Source of the DNA: a phage
DNA length: 46,671 nucleotides
Strand: one strand, 5' to 3'
Assembly (NCBI GenBank): GCA_030877765.1
Contig: GCA_030877765.1_4853.1
The position numbers and the translations under genes are program-made. Below are positions 10,731 through 38,670 of the stretch, piece by piece (the stretch's first letter is position 1; each line of letters begins with the position of its first letter). The notes under the pieces are model-generated. The model was not told the origin of the DNA, did no database searches, and saw only the letters and a program-made list of their open reading frames with translations.

Positions 10731-11040
10731 CTCACGTGGGTAGCGTGGGGAAGCCGTGGGGAACATCACCTTCCCCACGAAGTTTCACTCTAAGTATATG
10801 TAATATAATATAATTATTATTATTTGGGTTAATGGGTAATATTATTATTCATATTATAGATAGTAATTAACATAATATTAACAAATGGATTATTTGAATA
10901 TATTTATAAGGGGATGGGTATGAAATCTTCCCCTTTTTACCCACGAAAAATAAAAACATTAAAATCAATTATTTACGATGAAAAACGTGGGGCAACTGAC
11001 CTTCCCCACGGCTTCCCCACGGGTAAAAATTTACCCCACG
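10731..11040. repeat. Iteron array flanking an AT-rich core (candidate origin/operator region)
   Basis: About nine copies of (T)YCCCCACG(G) or its complement CGTGGGG in both orientations at 10732-10779, 10939-10946 and 10986-11040, either side of a ~140-bp AT-rich stretch (10795-10935). Confidence 0.7.
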
Positions 11041-11063: not shown

Positions 11064-11092
11064 TTGACGTAGAATCACAACTGATGTAGATT
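11064..11092 (+). promoter_or_regulatory. Rightward early promoter
   Basis: TTGACG (11064-11069), 17-bp spacer, TAGATT (11087-11092); GAGGG RBS and ATG at 11123 downstream. Confidence 0.55.
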
Positions 11093-18634: not shown

Positions 18635-19565
18635 CGCAAGGCTACCCCAACCGCGCATATCGCAGAGCCTGACAGACCCGCTGGGTGCTGCGACTCGCCT
18701 GTCGAAGATGGATAAGGTGATAACGCGCAAATACAAACAATTCAGGACTCGTGCTCTTGAGTTGTTTCGCACTATTCCGAACGGTCAGGCTAATGCAGAA
18801 TCAAGCGGTCTGTATTTCTACGATTTCAGCAGTGCACGGGCTGCCACTTTCATGGATGAGTTACAGGCGCTGATTGACGAGATTCTTCTTGAAGGTGATG
18901 ATTTCGGTCACGGCAGGATGTGGGCCAATGTGTTCATTGGTGATGCGTATCAGGCCGGAACACAAAAGGCTAACTCAGAACTGTCAAGCCTGTCTCCGGT
19001 TTACGCTGAGCAGAGGCCGATTGCCGCGATACTCTACAGTGAGCCTTACCTGAATCGGCTCCAACTGGCTTATACGCAAGGTTACTCAGACTGGCGCGGA
19101 TTGAGTGATTACTCCCGCCAGCAACTGGCATCTGTCATTATGGAAGGCATTGCCCGTGGCGCTAATCCTCGCGATGTTGAAGCTGACATTGTTAAACGTG
19201 TTGATGTATCTCACAGCTACGCGAAACAGTTGGCGCAGACTGAAATAACCGGAACGCTACGTCAGGCTAACAGGCGGGAGGTCATTGAGGCGCGCGAAGA
19301 GTTAGGCATTGAGACGGTGATGCTGTGGCAATCGGCGTTGATGCGCACAACCCGCCAGACGCACGCAGCGCGACACGGACGGTTTTATACACCAGAAGAG
19401 ATTGACACGTTTTATAGCGAGAATGGCAATAAATATAATTGTCACTGTGCACAAACACCAGCATTGCTAATGGATGGGAAACCAGTCATTCTTGAATCCT
19501 CGCAGGAAAGGCTTGATAAACAGCGTGAAGCATGGCAATCAGTCAACAAAAAGCCCTCTAAGTGA
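18615..19565 (+). CDS. Head morphogenesis protein (SPP1 gp7-like minor head protein)
   Basis: Follows the portal; in-frame ATG at 18615 overlaps the portal stop; assigned by position and size. Confidence 0.6.
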
Positions 19566-19580
19566 GGGCTTGGTTTTGTC
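19553..19580. terminator. Bidirectional terminator
   Basis: Stem gccctc/gagggc with 5-nt loop, then TTGGTTTTG. Confidence 0.7.
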
Positions 19581-19648
19581 TTGTGAGCATACACAGAACA
19601 AATATTATTATCGCATAGCACAATATCTCTACGATGCTGAATATTGTT

Positions 19649-20293
19649 TTAATCATCCAGTTTCACGCCTGGAATTTTTCCTGCTGCAATGGCTTCATAA
19701 ATTAGCTTGGCCTCGTCCTCGCGCCTGTAATCTTGAGCTGCCATTTCTAACACCGCGCAGATAGACTCAAGTACAGCCTCATGCTTCTTTTCTGCTTCTG
19801 TGCGTAGTGGTTTTAGGCTTTCCGGTACGAAGCAGCATGACCGACCAGCACCACCTTCATCCCAATAGCAAACAGCCACATCGTTTCCGTCCGTTGTTGT
19901 CTTGTGCGCTACAACTTCCATTTCAGTGCCAGCATCAGGAATCCAGTCATTGCAGTATCCTAACTTTGGATTAAAGAAGAATTCTACTTTTGCACCAACT
20001 GGCGGCAGGCCTTCTCCATTCCATGTCTGCTTTTGCAATGCTGCTAGCGCGGATTCATACAAGTCGCGAGTTATCATACAATAATCCGTGGCTACGCTGA
20101 CATAGCGACCGGGTATGGGGATTGCCACGGTGTACTGAAATGGCACATCAAAACCATCGCTATATCCCTTTGGGAAACAAAAAGCAATTGTGATACTGTC
20201 ACCATTGAAATCACCAACTCGACACCTCTCAGCACCATCAGGCCACCCACCACGCTTAGGTAATTCTTGAACTAACAGGTCGATAAGTTTCAT
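19649..20293 (-). CDS. Hypothetical protein (214 aa), last gene of leftward cassette A
   Basis: Long ORF on the opposite strand to the structural genes, coupled to the upstream paralog-A gene. Confidence 0.55.
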   Translation of the reverse strand: MKLIDLLVQELPKRGGWPDGAERCRVGDFNGDSITIAFCFPKGYSDGFDVPFQYTVAIPIPGRYVSVATDYCMITRDLYESALAALQKQTWNGEGLPPVGAKVEFFFNPKLGYCNDWIPDAGTEMEVVAHKTTTDGNDVAVCYWDEGGAGRSCCFVPESLKPLRTEAEKKHEAVLESICAVLEMAAQDYRREDEAKLIYEAIAAGKIPGVKLDD

Positions 20294-20592
20294 TTTGTTT
20301 CTCCCAATGCTTTATTAACCGCGGCACGTGCATTATCCAGAGCGCGACGCTTGCTTGATGTTGTCCAGCATTTTCCGGAGTGGTCGTCGTAGATTTCCAG
20401 AAGTTGCTGGAGTGCTGATAACAGGTCAGGAGATGCCGCTATTAGCCTTGCGTTATGCCATTGCTCGGTTTTATCACCGTTATATGTTGGAGTGAATGCA
20501 ACCTCGACACCAATATCCGAGATAACATCTGGCGCGTTATCATCACCAACAACAACTTCCCATTTTCCATGCGTACCTTTAAATTCTTTCAC
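20290..20592 (-). CDS. KEFKGT-motif protein, paralog A (likely GTG start at 20592)
   Basis: Shares MKEFKGT-G-W N-terminus, AA-P-LL-ALQ and NKALG C-terminal motifs with the 33777-34118 product; GAGGT RBS. Confidence 0.55.
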   Translation of the reverse strand: MKEFKGTHGKWEVVVGDDNAPDVISDIGVEVAFTPTYNGDKTEQWHNARLIAASPDLLSALQQLLEIYDDHSGKCWTTSSKRRALDNARAAVNKALGETK

Positions 20593-20600
20593 ATCCAACC

Positions 20601-20744
20601 TCACTTAATATACTCAACAATCTCAACTTCACGCATCTGCACCAGGCCAAATGGTGCAACCACCTTACCGCACGGACGGATTTTGATTTGCTCAAGGTTG
20701 AACACTCCGCAGCGTCCGTTTTCTTTGAATTTGACCATTACCAT
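20601..20744 (-). CDS. Small protein (47 aa)
   Basis: ATG start; stop overlaps the downstream GTG; below track cutoff. Confidence 0.3.
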   Translation of the reverse strand: MVMVKFKENGRCGVFNLEQIKIRPCGKVVAPFGLVQMREVEIVEYIK

Positions 20745-20746
20745 AA

Positions 20747-20899
20747 TTAATACCCGTTTTTCTTGGCTAATTGTTGCGCACGTTTCTTCGTGTACCCACA
20801 GGCCATCAGGCGCTTGACCTCGTTGCGGCGCCTTGCGAAATGGTACTCACGAGAATTAAATGCACATTCGTTGCTAAAGTTAACATTACGTGGATTCAT
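20747..20899 (-). CDS. Small basic protein (50 aa)
   Basis: GAGGTG RBS 6 nt upstream; Arg/Lys-rich; first ORF after the leftward promoter. Confidence 0.3.
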   Translation of the reverse strand: MNPRNVNFSNECAFNSREYHFARRRNEVKRLMACGYTKKRAQQLAKKNGY

Positions 20900-20931
20900 C
20901 TTCATCACCTCATTCATCACTTGATATAGAT

Positions 20932-20977
20932 ACTATGCACCACCAACCAATCTACGTCAACACCATTGTGATAGAAT
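20932..20977. promoter_or_regulatory. Divergent promoter pair
   Basis: Minus strand TTGACG, 17 bp, CATAGT; plus strand extended -10 TGaTAGAAT. The core CACCACCAACCAATCTACGTCAACA recurs at 34160-34190. Confidence 0.55.
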
Positions 20978-21003
20978 TAATCATTATTTGAACTGGAGGC
21001 AGA

Positions 21004-21282
21004 ATGAAACTATCGCAACGAGGCGTGGAGACGTTTGGAATTACCGATGCCGTGAATATATCGCCTTACATCACTACCGAGACAACGCAGAATCAGTTCG
21101 ACGCGCTGGCAAGTCTTGCCACCGACATTGGCATTTACGCGTTCCGTAAATCAACGCTTCTGAAGAAGCACAACCTCCGCTGCTTCTCATGTGCTGTTGC
21201 GCATTTCATCGCGTGGGGCGAGAAGACTGGCGACAAAGCAAAACGCAAAGCTGAAAAAGAGGTTTACTGGTATGGCTATTAG
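21004..21282 (+). CDS. Lysozyme-like remnant (GH24/P22 gp19-type C-terminal subdomain only)
   Basis: QNQFDALASLATDIGIYAFRKSTLLKKHNL...AHFIAWGEK parallels the P22/T4 lysozyme C-terminal region as recalled from memory; catalytic Glu/Asp/Thr segment absent; has its own RBS (GGAGG). Confidence 0.5.
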   Translation: MKLSQRGVETFGITDAVNISPYITTETTQNQFDALASLATDIGIYAFRKSTLLKKHNLRCFSCAVAHFIAWGEKTGDKAKRKAEKEVYWYGY

Positions 21283-21736
21283 TAAAAACATGAAGGCGTT
21301 TCTGGATATGCTGGCGTACAGCGAGGGCACTGATAACGGGCGGCAGAAAACCAATAATCATGGTTATGATGTGATTGTTGGCGGCTCACTGTTTACCGAC
21401 TATTCCGACCACCCGCGCAAGCTGATTAGCCTGCCAAGGCTGGGCATTAAATCCACCGCCGCCGGTCGCTATCAGGTACTGGCTAAGTTTTATGATGCGT
21501 ACAAAAAGCAATTGCGTTTACCGGACTTCTCCCCCGCATCGCAGGACGCCATTGCAATGCAGCTAATCCGTGAATGCAAGGCCACCGCTGATATTGAGGC
21601 TGGTCGCATTGCTGATGCCATCCATAAATGCCGCTCCCGCTGGGCCTCATTGCCGGGCGCTGGGTATGGTCAGCATGAGCAGAAGCTGGATAAGCTGATT
21701 CAGGTATACAAAGAGGCTGGCGGAGCTGTGGCATGA
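21272..21736 (+). CDS. Endolysin, lambda R-type lytic transglycosylase
   Basis: KAFLDMLAYSEGTDNGRQKTNNHGYDVIVGG..FTDYSDHPR...GRYQ...WASLPGAGYGQ closely tracks lambda R as recalled. Confidence 0.9.
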   Translation: MAISKNMKAFLDMLAYSEGTDNGRQKTNNHGYDVIVGGSLFTDYSDHPRKLISLPRLGIKSTAAGRYQVLAKFYDAYKKQLRLPDFSPASQDAIAMQLIRECKATADIEAGRIADAIHKCRSRWASLPGAGYGQHEQKLDKLIQVYKEAGGAVA

Positions 21737-21972
21737 AAAAGCTAAGCAACTGGCTGCTCGCCGCGTGGATTTCATTCTGCTCGCTGTTACAACTATGGCC
21801 TGATGCAATGATGCATGTGTGGGTAATGATGCCGGATGACCTGAAAGCAGCGCTACCGCCAATCGTGGTCAAAGGTGTGAGTTACTCAATTATGCTTGTC
21901 GGCATCCTCGGCAAAATGCACGGCATGAGGAAGGAAAACCGGAGGCTGCGCAATGATGTCGATTCTCGTTAA
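21733..21972 (+). CDS. Putative holin (two TM helices, charged C-terminus)
   Basis: TM1 LSNWLLAAWISFCSLLQLW, TM2 VSYSIMLVGILG, tail KMHGMRKENRRLRND; ATGA-coupled to the endolysin. Confidence 0.45.
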   Translation: MKKLSNWLLAAWISFCSLLQLWPDAMMHVWVMMPDDLKAALPPIVVKGVSYSIMLVGILGKMHGMRKENRRLRNDVDSR

Positions 21973-22444
21973 ATACTGGCGACCGCTGGCAATTATTATA
22001 ATTGTTGCCGCTGGCGCGTTGTGGGTGGCAAATAAAGTGTCCGGTTATGGCGAGCAACAATATGCCGCCGGATACGCGAAGGCAGTCGCAGAACAGAAGG
22101 CCGCAGACGAACAAGAGGAGCAACGACGCAATGCAGAACTGCAAAAGATTCAGGCCGACGCACAGCAAAGGATTGATGCTGCGCGCAATGATGCTGTTAA
22201 TGCTGCCGCTAAGTCTGGCAGGTTGCAGCAACAACTCACCAGTATCCGCAAGCAGCTCGTCGGATATTCCACCGCTGAGTCCATTGGCAACCCAGCCGCA
22301 GAAACCGGAGTTTTGCTTGCAGACGTGCTCCGCAAATCTGTCGAAAGAAATCAACAGCTGGCAGATTACGCTGACAGGGCGAGAGAGGCAGGATTGACGT
22401 GTGAGGCACAGTATAATTCTCTGCGTAATAAAAAAGCCCCGTGA
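21953..22444 (+). CDS. Rz: Rz-like i-spanin
   Basis: N-terminal TM (LAIIIIVAAGALWV) followed by Gln/Ala-rich coiled coil. Confidence 0.8.
   Translation: MMSILVKYWRPLAIIIIVAAGALWVANKVSGYGEQQYAAGYAKAVAEQKAADEQEEQRRNAELQKIQADAQQRIDAARNDAVNAAAKSGRLQQQLTSIRKQLVGYSTAESIGNPAAETGVLLADVLRKSVERNQQLADYADRAREAGLTCEAQYNSLRNKKAP
22176..22397 (+). CDS. Rz1: Rz1-like o-spanin lipoprotein, embedded in +1 frame within Rz
   Basis: MLRAMMLLMLPLSLAGCSNN: signal peptide with LAGC lipobox; Pro-rich mature region. Confidence 0.7.
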   Translation: MLRAMMLLMLPLSLAGCSNNSPVSASSSSDIPPLSPLATQPQKPEFCLQTCSANLSKEINSWQITLTGRERQD

Positions 22445-22460
22445 TGGGGCTTTGTTTTAA
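22433..22460. terminator. Bidirectional terminator
   Basis: Stem agcccc/ggggct overlapping the Rz stop, followed by TTTGTTTT. Confidence 0.75.
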
Positions 22461-24113: not shown

Positions 24114-24140
24114 ATTTACTACTCCTTCTCGAAAAACATC

Positions 24141-24201
24141 TTGACGTTTCTACATCATTTAGTCAATACTTGTTGACGTAGATTGTACCACAACGGAAAA
24201 G
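24141..24201. promoter_or_regulatory. Divergent promoter region with two TTGACG boxes
   Basis: TTGACG at 24141 and 24173, the second as TGTTGACGTAGATT; separates leftward cassette B from rightward genes. Confidence 0.4.
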
Positions 24202-31320: not shown

Positions 31321-32139
31321 ATGGCTGTCAGGTACGAAATAAACACAACTCCGGCTGACGGAGAGGTTTTGCTTAGCGAAACCATGTCTGCGGACTGGTC
31401 AGCATTACAGGTGCAGATTGTGCCGCTAAATTCTTCCGGTGGCTATGTGCCATTAACAAGCGGGTCTGTTTACGTAATGGTATCGCCGTTTGCGTCTGGT
31501 GATTTCTGGATTGACGTCAACAATAATAATTATTATGGCGTAGCGCTGCGGCTGAAGGTGATCAAGTCCCAAATACCTGCTGGCATTGCATCTCTGAAAG
31601 TCCTTGTATGGCGAGCAGCTACATCAGTGCCATCAAGTCAGGTTGTGGCACAGTCCTATGCAGAGTTTGCTAACAAGCAAGGGAAGTTATTCACTGCGTC
31701 GCGCAGAGTAACTGATGTCGCTGGCAGCTCAAACCTTGACAGCATATTTATCACCGGAACAAAGCAGGTGATATTCAACCAGCGCATTATTGGTTACACG
31801 GGGAAAGGTGTTGTTGCATCAATCTATCGCGGCGCAGTTGCCACTGGCGGTACGACGGCAGAGATTAACAACCCAAACGACATAACGCCACAAGCAGCTA
31901 CGGCGCAGTTAATTACTGGCGCTACCGTGACAAACATCGGGCAGCTGACGGTGGCGGCAACATACAGTGAGGGTAACGCATCGAATCAGGGGCAGGGTAA
32001 CTCGCAGGCGAAGCTCGGCGAGCAGATTATCATGGCACCGAATACGACGTACTTACTTCGCATAACATCACTAGATACTGCGGCGCAGAATATCAATGCG
32101 TACGTTTCATGGTTTGAGGATGATACTTATCTGGCGTGA
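31321..32139 (+). CDS. Hypothetical (probably virion-associated) Thr/Ala/Gly-rich protein
   Basis: 273 aa from MAVRYEIN; flanked by terminators on both sides. Confidence 0.5.
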   Translation: MAVRYEINTTPADGEVLLSETMSADWSALQVQIVPLNSSGGYVPLTSGSVYVMVSPFASGDFWIDVNNNNYYGVALRLKVIKSQIPAGIASLKVLVWRAATSVPSSQVVAQSYAEFANKQGKLFTASRRVTDVAGSSNLDSIFITGTKQVIFNQRIIGYTGKGVVASIYRGAVATGGTTAEINNPNDITPQAATAQLITGATVTNIGQLTVAATYSEGNASNQGQGNSQAKLGEQIIMAPNTTYLLRITSLDTAAQNINAYVSWFEDDTYLA

Positions 32140-32145
32140 TAAAAG

Positions 32146-32170
32146 AAAAGCCCCGCAAGGGGCTTTTTAT
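32146..32170. terminator. Bidirectional terminator
   Basis: Stem agcccc/ggggct with gcaa loop; T-runs on both strands. Confidence 0.8.
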
Positions 32171-32172
32171 TG

Positions 32173-32709
32173 CTACAGACGCATAGGCATAACAACAATC
32201 TTCGCAGTCTCTCCAGATGGCGCACTAAGACAGCAAACAGCGGCATCTGTGTTTCCATTTAGTTCAAATTTAACGCAACAGAATCTTGGGTTAAACAGCT
32301 TTGCCACCTTCTCGATATCAACAAGGTAGCCAGCATTGAAGCCAATTTTCTCTGCAGGCAAGGTCTGATTCGGAATGACGCGATCAATATCAGGGAATCG
32401 ACCATCAATCTCTTCGCAGATACCTGCTCCAACCATCGCGCCGGCTTCATCATGATACGTTGCAATTTTCGACTTTGTATCAATGATGGCGTGCTCATAA
32501 CGCTTTGTTGGTGACTTGCCAATCTTGATGATTACATTTTCTGTCAGCTTATTGTCATGGTTGCCACCAATAAATGCGCGATGACCGTCAGTTGAGGCAA
32601 TGCGACCATCTTGCATAAAGCAAATACCATTCAGGTAGTAGCGCACATCATTGCGAGCCTGAAAGATTAATGCTGATTCAAGTAATAATTTGCTGATTTT
32701 TAGTTTCAT
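32173..32709 (-). CDS. Truncated DnaN-like sliding clamp (beta-clamp) fragment
   Basis: Blocks shared with E. coli DnaN as recalled: DVRYYLNG, TDGHR, DGRFPD, IGFN..Y.LD, C-terminal VVMPMRL. At 178 aa it is about half of a full clamp. Confidence 0.7.
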   Translation of the reverse strand: MKLKISKLLLESALIFQARNDVRYYLNGICFMQDGRIASTDGHRAFIGGNHDNKLTENVIIKIGKSPTKRYEHAIIDTKSKIATYHDEAGAMVGAGICEEIDGRFPDIDRVIPNQTLPAEKIGFNAGYLVDIEKVAKLFNPRFCCVKFELNGNTDAAVCCLSAPSGETAKIVVMPMRL

Positions 32710-32882
32710 CACTTCACCTTAATCATGTGTTGTTTTGCAACCTTCAGGCATTCTTCAAAAATGCCACCATTCTTTGCGCTCTGATTGCGCTTGTAATACT
32801 GAATTGCCGCATCAATTGCCATCTGGTCGATTTCAGGCAGTTTTGCGCGCAGCTGTTTTTCGATGAATTGTTCGGCGTTCAT
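32709..32882 (-). CDS. Small protein (57 aa)
   Basis: ATG 32882; stop overlaps the clamp-fragment start (TGATG); below track cutoff. Confidence 0.3.
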   Translation of the reverse strand: MNAEQFIEKQLRAKLPEIDQMAIDAAIQYYKRNQSAKNGGIFEECLKVAKQHMIKVK

Positions 32883-32967
32883 TTTTCAACCTATTTGCAG
32901 TATGGGCACGTTGATTTCGTTCCGCTACCACCATGTCGTGGGCAACATATTTTCTCTATTGGTGTCA

Positions 32968-33777
32968 TCACATCTTCTCCAGAATTGCCATAACCTCGTG
33001 AATGTCAGCAACAGGAATCTGAATAAATTCCTCATCCTCTGCCACCACATGACCAGCAGGGAGAATTACATGGTCAGCTGGCTTCAGTAACTCAATCAGG
33101 CGGTCTACTGGCTTAATCTTTTTCGACTTCAGCACTTTGGCTGTGACCTTATCCTTGCCTTGCGCCTTCGCTTCTTCGACCGCTTCGTCGATAACTTTTA
33201 CCGCATCATCTCCATGTTCGCGCGTTACCGCTACGGCATTTGCATAGCTGATCTGTCCGGCACTGATTCGCGCTTTTACTTCCGCAGGCACATCACCCAA
33301 CGACAGGTGCATTTGCACGTCAGATACTGAGCGGCCTACCTTCTTGGCGATTTCCTCGTTTGTCCAGCCAAAACCTTTCAGACGCGTGTAAGCCTTTGCG
33401 CGTTCAAACGGGTCAAGTTGCTTGCCCTGACTTGATGACACCATGAATGCGATTTTGTCAGCCTCGTCGCCAGTAAAATCCTTACACTCAATGCGAACGA
33501 TTGGTGCGCCGCGCTCAATGGCTCGCAATGCGCCGAGGTAGCGATGCTGCCCATCAAGAATGCGGATACCTTTATCGTCAGGAATAACTGTTAATGCTGG
33601 CAATGGCTGACCTGACTCCCAGCACTGCGCGAAATATTCCACATGCTGCTCATCTGCTTCACGGATGTTGTATCCCGGCTCCAGATAGATTTGCTCTACT
33701 GGCACGAGGTAGGTTTTGTTAACAGCGATACCGTTACGCGTTTCTTTGTCTGAATAGATTTTGCTTAGTGTTTTCAT
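32968..33777 (-). CDS. ParB N-terminal domain (ParB/Srx-like) nuclease-type protein
   Basis: ILDGQHRYLGALRA motif; central HTH-like segment (EEIAKKVGRSVSDVQ). Confidence 0.7.
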   Translation of the reverse strand: MKTLSKIYSDKETRNGIAVNKTYLVPVEQIYLEPGYNIREADEQHVEYFAQCWESGQPLPALTVIPDDKGIRILDGQHRYLGALRAIERGAPIVRIECKDFTGDEADKIAFMVSSSQGKQLDPFERAKAYTRLKGFGWTNEEIAKKVGRSVSDVQMHLSLGDVPAEVKARISAGQISYANAVAVTREHGDDAVKVIDEAVEEAKAQGKDKVTAKVLKSKKIKPVDRLIELLKPADHVILPAGHVVAEDEEFIQIPVADIHEVMAILEKM

Positions 33778-34118
33778 TATTTCTTTCCTAATGCTTTATT
33801 GATAGATTCTTCAGCTAACAGCAATTCATCTGGGTATTGTTCATTCCAGTTTTGTTTGTATGCCTTGCTAAGCATTTTTTGCAGAGCTTCAAGCAACTCA
33901 GGTGCTGCTGCCATTAAATTAAAGTCATGCTCAACACTGCTATCAATCTCCCAATGCATCCCGTTGTATTTAGCACCCTTGCTAGAGAAGGCAATATTTC
34001 TGTCATCGTCGTGGTGACAGCCAGGTGTGTCATCAGTTCGACAAGACGGGTAAATAGCTGCGCAACCCCCGCGAATGTCTGCGACCCACGGCCCGGGCGT
34101 ACCTTTAAATTCTTTCAT
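33777..34118 (-). CDS. KEFKGT-motif protein, paralog B
   Basis: MKEFKGTPGPW...AAAPELLEALQ...INKALGKK; the RBS-start context GAGGTGATGAAAATGAAAGAATTTAAAGGTACG is shared with paralog A. Confidence 0.6.
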   Translation of the reverse strand: MKEFKGTPGPWVADIRGGCAAIYPSCRTDDTPGCHHDDDRNIAFSSKGAKYNGMHWEIDSSVEHDFNLMAAAPELLEALQKMLSKAYKQNWNEQYPDELLLAEESINKALGKK

Positions 34119-34159
34119 TTTCATCACCTCTAATATTTATTGTTGTTTCTACGTCACTA

Positions 34160-34205
34160 ACTATAAACGCACCACCAATCTACGTCAACAGGAATATGCT
34201 AAAAT
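34160..34205. promoter_or_regulatory. Divergent promoter pair (duplicate of 20932-20977)
   Basis: Minus strand TTGACG, 17 bp, TATAGT; plus strand extended -10 TGcTAAAAT. Confidence 0.6.
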
Positions 34206-34235
34206 CATGCTAATCAAACAACAGGAGATTTAAAC

Positions 34236-34355
34236 ATGGGTTCAACCAACTCACCATCTCGTTCGCGCGCTACTGGCAACACAAAAACTGGCGGCAAAAC
34301 TGGCGTGGTGAAGCCAAACGGCTCTACCCGTTCACCATCGCGCGGTAAAAAATAA
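34236..34355 (+). CDS. Small basic Ser/Gly/Arg/Lys-rich protein (39 aa)
   Basis: AGGAG RBS, ATG 34236; stop overlaps the next ATG. Confidence 0.35.
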   Translation: MGSTNSPSRSRATGNTKTGGKTGVVKPNGSTRSPSRGKK

Positions 34356-34783
34356 TGTTCGGCGCAGATGTTGCCATCATGATCATGTATGTGCTTGGAT
34401 TTGCCTGCACGGGCATGGTTGCGTTTCTGGTGTTCATTCCGGCAATGGTGATGTCTGTGTATCTTGGATGGGTGCTTGTTGATTCATTTCCCGCCGAATA
34501 TCTGTATTACCTTGCGCAGTGTATGGTCGGGTTGTTTCCGGCTATTGCGCTGCGTAAAAGTACAAAGATGGCGCTCTGCGTGCTGACGATGAGCCTTTAC
34601 GAATGGCTGGTTGCGATAGAGTCATTCGTATGGGAATTTATCACGCCTGTAGAAACGCCGCTTCATGCGCAGTACGCATTTATTATTATCGGCATCCATC
34701 TGTTCATCCTTTTCATCACTTTTAAATGGGGCGGCGAAATTGGACGTTATTCTTGGCGTGGTTGCCATCGTTTTTTTCGCTGA
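34355..34783 (+). CDS. Polytopic membrane protein (about 4 TM)
   Basis: Four hydrophobic helices. Confidence 0.5.
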   Translation: MFGADVAIMIMYVLGFACTGMVAFLVFIPAMVMSVYLGWVLVDSFPAEYLYYLAQCMVGLFPAIALRKSTKMALCVLTMSLYEWLVAIESFVWEFITPVETPLHAQYAFIIIGIHLFILFITFKWGGEIGRYSWRGCHRFFR

Positions 34784-34828
34784 TTCAAATCTATAAGTGC
34801 TGGAAACATATTATCAGCGAGACTCGCA

Positions 34829-36222: not shown

Positions 36223-36596
36223 TGAATATGCTTGAACTGGTTGATGCATATCTTCAGGATGCAGGATTGTACGATGGCTGGACTTCGCAGCTGCAGTTCT
36301 GGAATGACACCGGAGATGGAAGTGAGCAATTTATTGTTCTGCAATCCAACGGTGGCACTCAGGTTATGGATGGCCTCGGCGGTGACTTCTATTTTTCGCT
36401 GTATGTTGTTGGCAAACAAGGCCAATACAATGTTGCTGATGTTGATTCGAAGGCCAATGAGATTATCGAATACATCAAAACACACCCGATTGATTCATGC
36501 GTTAACTACATCCAGTTGCAAGCGCCACTTGGCAGGGCAATGCTGACGGAAGAAAAAAGACCAGTGCATGAACTGCTATTACGTGTTGTGAAATAA
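36222..36596 (+). CDS. Putative tail terminator protein
   Basis: 124 aa; immediately before the major tail region. Confidence 0.45.
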   Translation: MNMLELVDAYLQDAGLYDGWTSQLQFWNDTGDGSEQFIVLQSNGGTQVMDGLGGDFYFSLYVVGKQGQYNVADVDSKANEIIEYIKTHPIDSCVNYIQLQAPLGRAMLTEEKRPVHELLLRVVK

Positions 36597-36597
36597 A

Positions 36598-36624
36598 TAA
36601 AGCCGCATGAAGCGGCTTTTAATT
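36598..36624. terminator. Bidirectional terminator
   Basis: Stem agccgc/gcggct with 5-nt loop; T-runs on both strands. Confidence 0.75.
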
Positions 36625-36701: not shown

Positions 36702-37199
36702 ATAAGTGCTGGTTTAAGCATTGCCAGCGTGCTTTCTTAACATCCAGCCCCGTAACCCATACATACCCCTACATATGATTGCGATAATGCTGGATATTAA
36801 GTGTTGTGGTGGCCGGTGCTGATCTCCGGCATAAGGCGCTTATTCGGCGGCGTCGAGCTTGCTTATTCGCTTGAGCCATCCTCGTGAGTCAGCCACGTCC
36901 CACTGCGCATCAGCCTGCGCATTCACCACAACGGAAAGAGCACTGATGCGCTCACTTGGGACTCCTTAGCCATAACCCACGGGCTTCTGGTACACCAATG
37001 CTCTTACCTGTTGTGTTCCCTGACTTATTAATCACACCTCAGGGACGCAGTGCGCCGAATTTGTTTACAAGGAATCGGAAGACCTTGCTGACTTACAGGC
37101 TATTACGCCGCCATCAGAACAACATCATCGTTTGCATTTATCTTTGTGGTCAGTTTCTAAAAAGTCCGCAAAGTCGCTCACGAAAACTATCTGAAATAC

Positions 37200-37243
37200 A
37201 ATCTACACCACAAAATAATCGCTGTCAACACCTGTGATATAAT
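37200..37243. promoter_or_regulatory. Divergent promoter pair: leftward into the non-coding locus, rightward for the major tail gene
   Basis: Minus strand TTGACA (37228-37223), 17 bp, TAGATT (37205-37200); plus strand extended -10 TGaTATAAT (37235-37243). Confidence 0.6.
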
Positions 37244-37279
37244 CACCACGTTAGCAGCTAACACAATTCGGAGATCGAA

Positions 37280-37999
37280 ATGGCTATTTGTGCAAATGAT
37301 AAAGGCGTTCTGGTCGGTCGCATGACCCGACTGTTCCTTGCTGAAGGGTGCGGCGACGCAGTTCCGGATGCAGGCGACTGGAAGTATTTAGGCTCAACCA
37401 CCAGTAAAGGCGTTGACTACTCGCCGCAGACCACTACGTCGGAAGCGGATACCGCTGGCGGCTTTGTTTCTACTCTCGTTACCAGCTCTGATATGACCAT
37501 CAGTGCAGAGGTAGAAATCCGCAAGAATGACCCGAGCGATGAGTTTGGCTTCCATCGTCTTGTTGAGATTTACACCACTGAACTGAAGGCTCGCCGCCAG
37601 CCTTCCTTGTGGGTGCGTCAGGTGACTGGTGCAACTATCGTTACCGCGTATTGCAACATCACCAGCATCAGCTACGAAGGTGGCACGAACGATATCGTTA
37701 CTGGTAGCCTTGAGTTTAAGGTTTACGATTCTGACAGCGTTACCGTAGAAAGCCTTGAACCTCTGGCATTCACTACCGACCTGCAATCAACTGGCACGGC
37801 CGGAATCCCGTTAACCGTTGCTGTTGAAGGTGGCGTTGATCCTTACACTTATGTATGGCGCAAAGATGGCGCAGTTGTTGATGGTGAGTCTGGCGCATCT
37901 CTGGCAAGCCCTACCGCTGGCGTGCATACCGTCACGGTAACTGATTCATCTACCGACCCGGAAATTATCATCAGCACGGCGTGCACGGTATCCCGATAA
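37280..37999 (+). CDS. Major tail protein with C-terminal Ig-like domain
   Basis: 239 aa, GGAG RBS; Thr/Val-rich Ig-like C-terminus as in lambda V; followed by a strong terminator. Confidence 0.7.
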   Translation: MAICANDKGVLVGRMTRLFLAEGCGDAVPDAGDWKYLGSTTSKGVDYSPQTTTSEADTAGGFVSTLVTSSDMTISAEVEIRKNDPSDEFGFHRLVEIYTTELKARRQPSLWVRQVTGATIVTAYCNITSISYEGGTNDIVTGSLEFKVYDSDSVTVESLEPLAFTTDLQSTGTAGIPLTVAVEGGVDPYTYVWRKDGAVVDGESGASLASPTAGVHTVTVTDSSTDPEIIISTACTVSR

Positions 38000-38004
38000 A
38001 GAAA

Positions 38005-38030
38005 AGCCCCGAAAGGGGCTTTGTTTTATT
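38005..38030. terminator. Bidirectional terminator
   Basis: Stem agcccc/ggggct with gaaa loop, TTGTTTTATT. Confidence 0.8.
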
Positions 38031-38592: not shown

Positions 38593-38641
38593 AATCTACA
38601 TCACCACCTCGCAGGTGTCAACACTACTGAGATGATATAAT
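38593..38641. promoter_or_regulatory. Divergent promoter pair: leftward for the Imm cassette, rightward for the tail assembly genes
   Basis: Minus strand TTGACA (38621-38616), 17 bp, TAGATT (38598-38593); plus strand extended -10 TGaTATAAT (38633-38641). Confidence 0.6.
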
Positions 38642-38670
38642 CAACATCAGTCAAATTCAGGATGCAAAAC

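Follow-up and report, generated by a model that had tools for sequence, protein, structure and literature searches.

Two KEFKGT genes of a Skatevirus-type phage as probable independent occupants of two accessory slots behind a common promoter type

Introduction

Why do two distant genes of one phage genome resemble each other both in their products and in the sequences upstream of them? The question is raised by a stretch of phage DNA of 46,671 nucleotides (nt) (NCBI GenBank assembly GCA_030877765.1, contig GCA_030877765.1_4853.1), which was analysed as a whole and which we call the window. Two leftward genes, paralog A at locus A and paralog B at locus B, encode small KEFKGT proteins behind similar promoter and ribosome-binding sequences. 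A first-pass annotation had read the two loci as one promoter-plus-gene module that was duplicated and whose copies afterwards exchanged their downstream cargo. We arrive at a different explanation, to which we assign a probability of roughly three in four: the two genes are old, independently shuffled occupants of two accessory slots. Their upstream regions are alike because both represent the standard promoter type of this phage, combined with an extended Shine-Dalgarno sequence, and not because of common descent of a promoter-plus-gene unit.

Results

The paralogy of the two KEFKGT products and their common motifs, as well as the coordinates and strand given for both genes in the first-pass annotation, are borne out. 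In a BLASTP comparison, A and B are 31% identical (E 5e-10), with matches at MKEFKGTxGxW, AA(S/A)P(D/E)LLxALQ and NKALG. Both match phrog_1273 over their full length, A with E 9.9e-22 (residues 1-99 on profile positions 3-101 of 103) and B with E 4.7e-18, and all listed database homologues of the two carry the precomputed assignment PF27050, named 'Phage_P22_Y8K6'. A profile search at E<=1e-3 collects 27,962 cluster representatives (50% identity clusters), nearly all of which are single-domain proteins of 90-125 amino acids (aa). Searched against Pfam, the longer members of 143-230 aa showed no known domains and no informative fusions. Relatives are found in P22-like and lambdoid phages (ST104 ORF18, mEp213), in 9NA-like, Klebsiella, Vibrio, Aeromonas and Rhizobium phages and in prophages. 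The family is characterized by an N-terminal FKGTxGxW, a central AAPxLLxALQ and a C-terminal KALG motif, and both window proteins contain all three, together with the invariant or near-invariant columns F4, G6, W11, A71, A72, P73, L75, L76, K108, A109, L110 and G111. The residues that are invariant, Gly, Pro, Trp, Phe, Ala and Leu, argue for a scaffold rather than an active site. A and B are ordinary PHROG 1273 / PF27050 members, and nothing in them is different in kind.

The AlphaFold2 models (predicted local distance difference test, pLDDT, 88.7 for A and 88.5 for B) predict a single common fold of three short strands followed by three helices in the same order. The predicted strands comprise residues 11-15, 21-25 and 30-33 in A and residues 11-15, 20-24 and 43-45 in B; the helices comprise residues 42-52, 54-68 and 78-95 in A and residues 60-70, 72-89 and 97-109 in B. 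In the family scaffold, the N-terminal FKGTxGxW would lead into the three-stranded sheet, followed by a kinked helix pair with (L)IAAAPELLEALQ, and the last helix would end with AI(N/K)KALGE. The middle module of B (33990-34070, residues ~17-43) contains conserved Cys and His residues (GGC...C...GCH). Most homologues with this module retain Cys19, Cys35 and His36 but not Cys28, and the pattern may point to a small metal site.

Both loci are embedded in a Skate-like genome. Megablast searches with window positions 19000-22000 and 32000-34800 matched 157-179 phage records at 85-93% identity, including the Salmonella phages Skate, BS5, Akira and seszw and the Escherichia phages swi2, C1 and Bas77-80. 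Skate is the type of the genus Skatevirus, and by sequence similarity we assign the window as a Skatevirus-type, enterobacterial siphophage genome; the phage appears virulent. Comparison with the annotated Bas78 genome reveals short leftward cassettes that break up the rightward array of structural and lysis genes, with locus A positioned between a head-morphogenesis gene and the lysis genes and locus B between capsid and head-tail genes. Operon A consists of orf50, orf47, A and the gene for a 214-aa protein (p214), followed by a terminator. Operon B consists of B, the gene for a ParB-like 269-aa protein, two open reading frames (ORFs) of 26 and 57 aa and the gene for a clamp-like 179-aa protein, again followed by a terminator (Table 1). 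The gene contexts noted previously, a ParB/clamp cassette for one paralog and a 214-aa protein with two tiny basic ORFs for the other, agree with this order. In both operons, the stop codon of the KEFKGT gene overlaps the start codon of the next gene, in the form ATGA for A and p214 and TAATG for B and ParB. The order of family member, ParB and, further downstream, clamp-like protein recurs in Skatevirus and in Klebsiella relatives, and the order orf47, family member, p214 recurs at locus A. Across loci, orf47 is mostly 81-98% identical at the protein level, with 62% in the genome L174, while homologues of p214 are 30-75% identical. Pfam-A, in a release older than the PF27050 model, and NCBIfam gave no match for A, B, p214, orf50 and orf47.

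How these genes diversify is indicated by their mosaic structure. Among 350 homologues there are three conserved junctions, MKEFKGTPGPW, (N)LIAAAPELLEALQ and AI(N/K)KALGE, separated by alternative middle modules that cannot be aligned with one another and by at least 8 C-terminal modules, in many combinations. Such combinations also link the two loci of the window. In the locus-A gene of BS5 and seszw, the first 239 nt are 87% identical to window B, a recurrence that is also seen at the protein level, and the last 155 nt are ~90% identical to window A. The breakpoints of this chimera are located at KEFKGT and AA(A/S)P(E/D)LL. Upstream of it, the orf47 region is 90-92% identical to the window, and the middle module of A has no counterpart. 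The reciprocal chimera P0160, which joins the N module of A to the C module of B, is found at locus A of a metagenomic relative. With it, all four N/C combinations of the window genes exist, and this requires recombination between the motifs. A survey of 33 locus-A regions, anchored on the adjacent lysis gene, shows a single C module (LSALQQLLEIYDDxSGKVWTTSSKRRALDNARAAVNKALGETK) joined to at least 8 N modules, three of which contain no KEFKGT/AAPELL motifs. This C-terminal module of A is nearly constant at locus A across the genus (29 of the 33 genes surveyed). The comparison points to diversification by shuffling, in which sub-gene modules as well as whole genes appear to be exchanged between loci and between phages.

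Exchange of whole genes becomes visible in a survey of 79 ParB loci. In genomes whose ParB is at least 98% identical to that of the window, the slot from the RBS (ribosome-binding site) behind the locus-B promoter P_B to ParB contains between 0 and 3 genes, drawn from at least 7 unrelated families. The occupants are PF27050 family members with at least 5 N modules, a 63-aa MANMSYC... protein (as in BS5), a 207-213-aa SSNAKHYDYY... protein, a 92-aa MFDIDNPSDD... protein (as in seszw), a 63-aa MEGETEVVVV... protein (as in C1), a DUF551-like 94-aa protein (as in IME207) and a 66-aa protein. L108 has no gene in this slot, so that P_B leads straight into ParB. The left junction of the slot lies exactly at RBS and start codon, where the in-frame read-through 'LEVM(K/E)M' translates TTAGAGGTGATGRAAATG. 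Beside the recurring ParB, which is conserved at 81-99%, the adjacent family member is only 30-40% identical to A or B. Equally variable is the first gene after the locus-A promoter P_A, which can be one of several unrelated ORFs of 57-159 aa or missing altogether; orf50 is present in only few genomes. Both loci are occupied by family members in ~10 of the Skatevirus genomes surveyed, among them Skate, swi2, Sf11 and the window.

At locus A, the family gene can be lost. In the viable engineered mutant seszw_2t2, 100 bp are missing at the start of the locus-A family gene, including its RBS, start codon and first 85 nt, and we infer laboratory dispensability from this deposited genome (for the engineered mutants and genome reduction of seszw see PMC9825161). 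Three IMG/VR Skatevirus genomes (L167, L171 and L175) are naturally without the locus-A family gene and most of p214. In these genomes, what is left of p214 immediately behind orf47 is 36 aa of its N-terminus (69% identical), which suggests that one deletion began inside the member gene and ended in p214.

The upstream regions give a different picture from that of a transferred unit. Pairwise alignment of the two loci does yield similarity beyond chance, at the DNA as at the protein level, and at the DNA level it is restricted to three short islands: a 17-nt promoter core, a 17-nt RBS and a 21-nt coding start. These islands are not colinear because promoter and RBS of locus A drive orf50. The RBS pattern GAGGTGATGAARATGAA is near-identical at both loci, and none of 100 shuffles reached the observed count. 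The shared RBS context described earlier is thereby confirmed as such, but only in locus B is it followed by the KEFKGT gene. In locus A, orf50 and orf47 come first, and paralog A, another 307 nt downstream, has its own weaker RBS (GTGAGGTTGGATGTG). Since the shared RBS GAGGTGAT complements the 16S rRNA 3' end over 8 nt, its identity between the loci is best read as convergence rather than inheritance. In the coding starts, 20 of the first 21 positions of A and B are identical (G/ATGAAAGAATTTAAAGGTACG). We rejected this identity as a special signal, since the same 21-mer occurs at other loci and the family has 11 synonymous variants of it. The start codon of A is GTG in the window and ATG in relatives (GTTATG -> GATGTG; 20590-20604), and an in-frame GTG at 20604, which overlaps the stop codon of orf47 (GTGA), is a second candidate start.

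The third island is the 17-mer TGTTGACGTAGATTGGT, of which a third copy with 2 mismatches is found at 24171-24187(+); none of 100 shuffles gave three or more matches. Genus-wide, only the 13-mer TTGACGTAGATTG of the 17-mer is common to P_A and P_B. P_A is kept in 33 related genomes. Among 29 distinct sequences of P_B, the core TTGACGTAGATTG is conserved to 0.99 and the -10 element to 1.0, compared to 0.77 for the rest of the spacer, and P_B is retained even in Klebsiella relatives with a ParB of only 81% identity. Conserved hexamers with a freely varying spacer are the signature of a functional promoter, as which we predict P_B. Both promoters are the leftward halves of back-to-back modules, of which the window contains four, each with a leftward -35 element TTGAC(G/A), a 17-nt spacer, the -10 element CATAGT, TATAGT or TAGATT and a rightward extended -10 element. 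The regions 20932-20977, 34160-34205 and 37200-37245 were grouped by a repeat finder as one repeat family (D2), and additional TTGACGTAGA promoters are located at 11064(+) and in the region 24137-24187. As far as can be read from these sequences, the core of P_A and P_B belongs to a phage-wide promoter set and is not specific to the two cassettes. The claim of one promoter core at both cassettes therefore stands for the exact 17-mer, but not as a mark that sets these two cassettes apart.

Inspection of the promoter modules led to the rejection of two further candidates: TGTGA in the rightward promoters does not fit a CRP site in its spacing, and TAGATT after the -35 element has no usable upstream -35 that would make it the -10 of an overlapping promoter. 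Behind the leftward promoter of the third module (37200-37228(-)), which runs antisense into a plus-strand ORF (36956-37237), there is no obvious RBS or ORF. A terminator-like hairpin (36938-36953(-)) is located downstream of this promoter, whose transcript may be a short RNA, either antisense or non-coding. Downstream of the rightward promoter at locus B, the first ORF, 34237-34356(+), encodes a very basic, Ser/Gly/Thr-rich peptide of 39 aa (MGSTNSPSRSRATGNTKTGGKTGVVKPNGSTRSPSRGKK).

Another recurring element is the 9-mer TGAYGTAGA, with 11 copies in the window, where 0.8 would be expected, and 13 copies in Bas78. Nearly all copies lie in intergenic predicted-promoter regions, often as pairs 17-36 nt apart. 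The element may be an operator, perhaps for the KorB/ParB-like protein of operon B, or a by-product of the hexamers TTGACG and TAGATT.

The 269-aa protein of operon B matches PF17762 HTH_ParB (2.5e-11) and PF08535 KorB (7.2e-6), and its match to TIGR00180 is below the cutoff of that model. The 179-aa protein covers only the middle of DnaN (TIGR00663 positions 138-251, E 8.6e-9), with weak matches to the Pfam beta-clamp domains. PHROG 3007 and several GenBank records call it a 'RusA-like Holliday junction resolvase', which looks like a mislabel. Between these two genes lie the ORF of a 26-aa CC...CxxC mini-protein (32891-32971(-)), whose GTG start overlaps the ParB stop codon, and the 57-aa ORF (32709-32882(-)). 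At this position Bas78 and others contain a DNA methyltransferase, which the window does not have.

Four similar GC-hairpin terminators (AAAGAAAAGCCCCG..GGGGCTTT) are found at 22428-22457, 32142-32171, 36595-36624 and 37998-38027. They are mostly bidirectional, two copies are 90% identical, and they close leftward cassettes. The cassettes are thereby bracketed by repeats, a promoter repeat in front and a terminator repeat behind. Two copies of a perfect 25-nt hairpin (CGTGGGGAAC..CCTTCCCCACG) lie 231 nt apart at 10755-10779 and 10986-11010, in an ORF-poor region of ~400 nt just upstream of the TTGACGTAGA promoter at 11064. The pair could represent an origin, a packaging site or a regulatory RNA.

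Table 1. Positions of genes, gene modules and predicted regulatory elements at the two loci and of related elements in the window.
Feature	Position	Strand	Remarks
Paralog A, 100 aa, GTG start	20290..20592	-	PHROG 1273 / PF27050; 94% identical to Skate same-locus gene
C-terminal module of A (LLSALQQLLEIYDDHSGKxWTTSSKRRALDNARAAVNKALGETK)	20290..20444	-	89.7% nt identity to seszw
Variable N/mid module of A (GKWEVVVGDDNAPDV...TEQWHNA)	20445..20570	-	no match in BS5/seszw locus-A gene, flanks 89-92%
p214, 214-aa protein, last gene of operon A	19649..20293	-	phrog_7798, unknown function
orf47, conserved left neighbour of locus-A family gene	20601..20744	-	phrog_21280
orf50, basic 50-aa ORF, promoter-proximal slot of operon A	20747..20899	-	
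Extended Shine-Dalgarno and start GAGGTGATGAAGATGAA	20895..20911	-	serves orf50, not A
P_A, predicted sigma70-type promoter	20932..20960	-	-35 TTGACG 20955-20960, 17-nt spacer, -10 CATAGT 20932-20937; consensus and conservation
Shared 17-mer TGTTGACGTAGATTGGT, locus A copy	20946..20962	-	
Rightward extended -10 element TGATAGAAT	20969..20977	+	back-to-back with P_A; faces lysis genes from 21004
Intrinsic terminator ending operon A	19551..19571	.	bidirectional
Paralog B, 113 aa, ATG start, promoter-proximal in ParB operon	33777..34118	-	93.8% identical to Bas78 same-locus gene
5' 239 nt of B (start through AAAPELL)	33880..34118	-	87% nt identity to 5' part of BS5/seszw locus-A gene
ParB/KorB-like helix-turn-helix protein, 269 aa	32968..33777	-	conserved right flank of locus-B slot
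Half-size DnaN-like (clamp-like) protein, 179 aa	32173..32712	-	last gene of operon B
Extended Shine-Dalgarno and start of B, GAGGTGATGAAAATGAA	34114..34130	-	also left junction of hypervariable slot
Second TGACGTAGA copy at predicted P_B transcription start	34148..34156	-	conserved across genus and Klebsiella relatives
P_B, predicted sigma70-type promoter	34160..34188	-	-35 TTGACG 34183-34188, 17-nt spacer, -10 TATAGT 34160-34165; consensus and conservation
Shared 17-mer TGTTGACGTAGATTGGT, locus B copy	34174..34190	-	
Rightward extended -10 element TGCTAAAAT	34197..34205	+	back-to-back with P_B
Intrinsic terminator ending operon B	32146..32167	.	one of 4-copy terminator repeat family D1
Third bidirectional module	37200..37245	.	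leftward TTGACA-17-TAGATT, rightward TGATATAAT before major tail gene
Fourth bidirectional module	38593..38648	.	leftward TTGACA-17-TAGATT, rightward TGATATAAT
TGAYGTAGA sites	4476, 7093, 11065, 11082, 15997, 20951, 24149, 24174, 34148, 34179, 38595	either orientation	

Discussion

We interpret the leftward operons as short, probably early and accessory units embedded in a rightward array of structural and lysis genes. Each of them would start at a back-to-back promoter module followed by a strong extended Shine-Dalgarno sequence. Recombination at short conserved stretches, namely at RBS and start codon, at the segments that code for the motifs and at the start of the next gene, would move modules and whole genes. 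The models and sequences are consistent with a small, laboratory-dispensable binding or adaptor protein under the control of a predicted sigma70 promoter, with a variable N module that would set the target specificity in a possible interaction with the host. From here, an arms-race role of the family in host takeover or anti-defence can be inferred.

Several points weigh against this interpretation. Promoter positions, timing and strength are predicted solely from consensus and conservation, and a role in anti-defence or host takeover is drawn only from hypervariability, operon position and dispensability. The breakpoints coincide with structurally constrained motifs, so that conservation of the junctions by itself is no proof that they serve as recombination substrates. 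The stop-start overlaps with p214 and ParB could mean a functional partnership. Searches gave no lead to a biochemical function: a sequence search of the PDB gave no match for B and only chance matches for A (E 0.36-0.68), neither a PDB fold match nor a relative of solved structure emerged, a Foldseek search against BFVD matched only uncharacterised phage proteins, and a literature search for PF27050, phrog_1273 and Phage_P22_Y8K6 found nothing relevant.

Duplication of one promoter-plus-KEFKGT-gene module within this genome, with different downstream cargo gained afterwards by the copies, would account for the true paralogy, for the exact promoter core, the near-identical RBS and the matching coding starts, and P_A and P_B do resemble each other more closely than any other two promoter modules (74% over 46 nt). 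We nevertheless consider it very unlikely. Contiguous, colinear homology from promoter through gene is missing, and at locus A it is orf50 and not the KEFKGT gene that promoter and RBS drive. The promoter core is common to other promoters of the phage and conserved genus-wide at each locus separately, and the coding-start 21-mer is only one of several synonymous versions in the family. The two paralogs are not each other's closest relatives: each shares ~94% identity with its same-locus counterpart in Skate or Bas78, but only 31% with the other paralog, which places the duplication far back and lets both slots predate the genus. Both locus architectures are kept out to the Klebsiella relatives. 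Of the duplication with cargo exchange proposed in the first-pass annotation, paralogy, similar promoters and exchange between the loci remain, while a duplicated promoter-plus-gene unit that swaps its downstream cargo does not; the units exchanged are sub-gene modules of the KEFKGT gene and whole genes in promoter-proximal slots. The opposite extreme, that the similarities are due to chance or low-complexity sequence, could appeal to the shortness of the segments (17-21 nt) and to the fact that strong Shine-Dalgarno sequences and AT-rich 5' codons are common. With the outcome of the shuffles for promoter core and RBS pattern, the BLASTP score, the match to the same family profile and the conservation of the elements across dozens of genomes, we regard its probability as practically nil.

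Two further explanations concern the role of the genes. The family proteins could be dedicated partners of the respective next gene, as chaperone, regulator or subunit, A with p214 and B with the ParB-like protein, so that the loci would represent two parallel two-component systems. Both stop-start overlaps fit this idea, as do the recurring adjacency of family member and ParB or p214 in Skatevirus and Klebsiella relatives and the near-constant C module at locus A, which is always upstream of a p214 homologue. The conservation of the supposed partners makes it unlikely. Where ParB is at least 98% identical, a family member precedes it in only ~11 of 33 genomes, and the others carry unrelated genes or, in L108, none; conserved ParB proteins stand next to strongly divergent members. 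At locus A, p214 drifts beside an unchanged C module, and extra ORFs are often inserted between member and p214. Moreover, lambdoid, P22-like and many other phages contain family members without ParB or p214. Somewhat more room is left for a regulon, in which TGAYGTAGA(TTG) would mainly be the operator of a phage regulator, with the KorB/ParB-like 269-aa protein as candidate, and the cassettes would be alike as parts of one regulon. The enrichment of the motif at promoter regions in both orientations speaks for it, and so does its candidate's match to HTH_ParB and KorB domains. In P_B, the 7 nt after the -35 element (TAGATTG) stay conserved while the remaining spacer varies, and P_B holds two copies of the motif, one of them at the predicted transcription start. 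On the other hand, the motif lacks the palindromic symmetry of parS and KorB operators, and several of the sites coincide with a -35 (TTGACG) or -10 (TAGATT) element; this overlap means that promoter consensus alone explains part of the enrichment. We regard the regulon as possible, though rather improbable as the main cause, and it is compatible with independently shuffled slot occupants.

The interpretation as shuffled slot occupants can be extended to the whole family. PF27050 proteins might be modular specificity adaptors, with a conserved scaffold, a helical C-terminal half that is near-constant at locus A and exchangeable N modules, some of them non-KEFKGT. They would then represent a large, unrecognised arms-race set, for example of inhibitors or decoys for host defence or takeover targets, and the promoter, RBS and motif junctions would form a recombination cassette system of small siphoviruses resembling the mobile cassettes of T4-type phages that are discussed below. 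We hold this extension to be doubtful as a whole.

The two loci present a clean sequence-level case of accessory-gene diversification in small virulent siphoviruses, with fixed slots and with swaps of whole genes and of parts of genes. Family size, hypervariability and dispensability make these proteins reasonable candidates for screens of phage-host interaction and anti-defence. Together with the KorB/ParB-like gene, the promoter-enriched 9-mer offers a testable idea on regulation in a little-studied phage group.

How do these findings relate to known systems? PHROG 1273 / PF27050 describes proteins of the same single-domain size of ~100 aa and with the same motifs as A and B, but membership in this uncharacterised family gives no mechanism. 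What is new beyond this catalogue is the module map, the chimeras between the loci, the fixed Skatevirus slots and the slot survey. KorB/ParB-type global regulators of IncP plasmids have operators at many promoters. The window resembles them in the ParB-HTH/KorB-domain protein of operon B and in a motif that recurs at most predicted promoters, with two copies at the protein's own; it differs in that the motif is non-palindromic and partly coincident with promoter hexamers, and the likeness is a lead from sequence alone. Lambdoid phages carry mosaic small early accessory genes of the 'ea'/nin type and moron-like genes. Here as there, small dispensable genes of unknown function are swapped among enterobacterial phages at short conserved boundaries, and family members and slot occupants, such as the DUF551-like protein of IME207, come from a shared pool. 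The slots of the window, in contrast, are located between late structural modules and not in a pL/pR early region, and they belong to an apparently virulent phage.

The closest analogy is provided by the promoter-early stem-loop (PeSL) elements, mobile regulatory cassettes of T4-type phages (Arbiol et al. 2010, PMC2839356; Comeau et al. 2014, PMC4122927). PeSLs are composite terminator-plus-promoter units in hyperplastic regions of large myoviruses, and one of their marks is that repeats recombine and mini-circles are excised. In both systems, repeated sigma70-like promoters, predicted ones in the window, border non-essential and highly variable ORFs, and close relatives differ by gene replacement, insertion or deletion that starts precisely at this repeated sequence. 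Compared to this description, the window, a 47-kb siphovirus genome, has a back-to-back bidirectional promoter, no terminator-like hairpin next to P_A or P_B and terminators at the distal cassette ends, and its genes also recombine internally, at the codons of conserved motifs. By analogy, the system of the window would work like PeSL without being a member of that class. The resemblance of promoter plus gene is in itself ordinary, a standard promoter family combined with two members of a catalogued protein family, and what the two loci display is ordinary phage accessory-gene plasticity, documented unusually cleanly.

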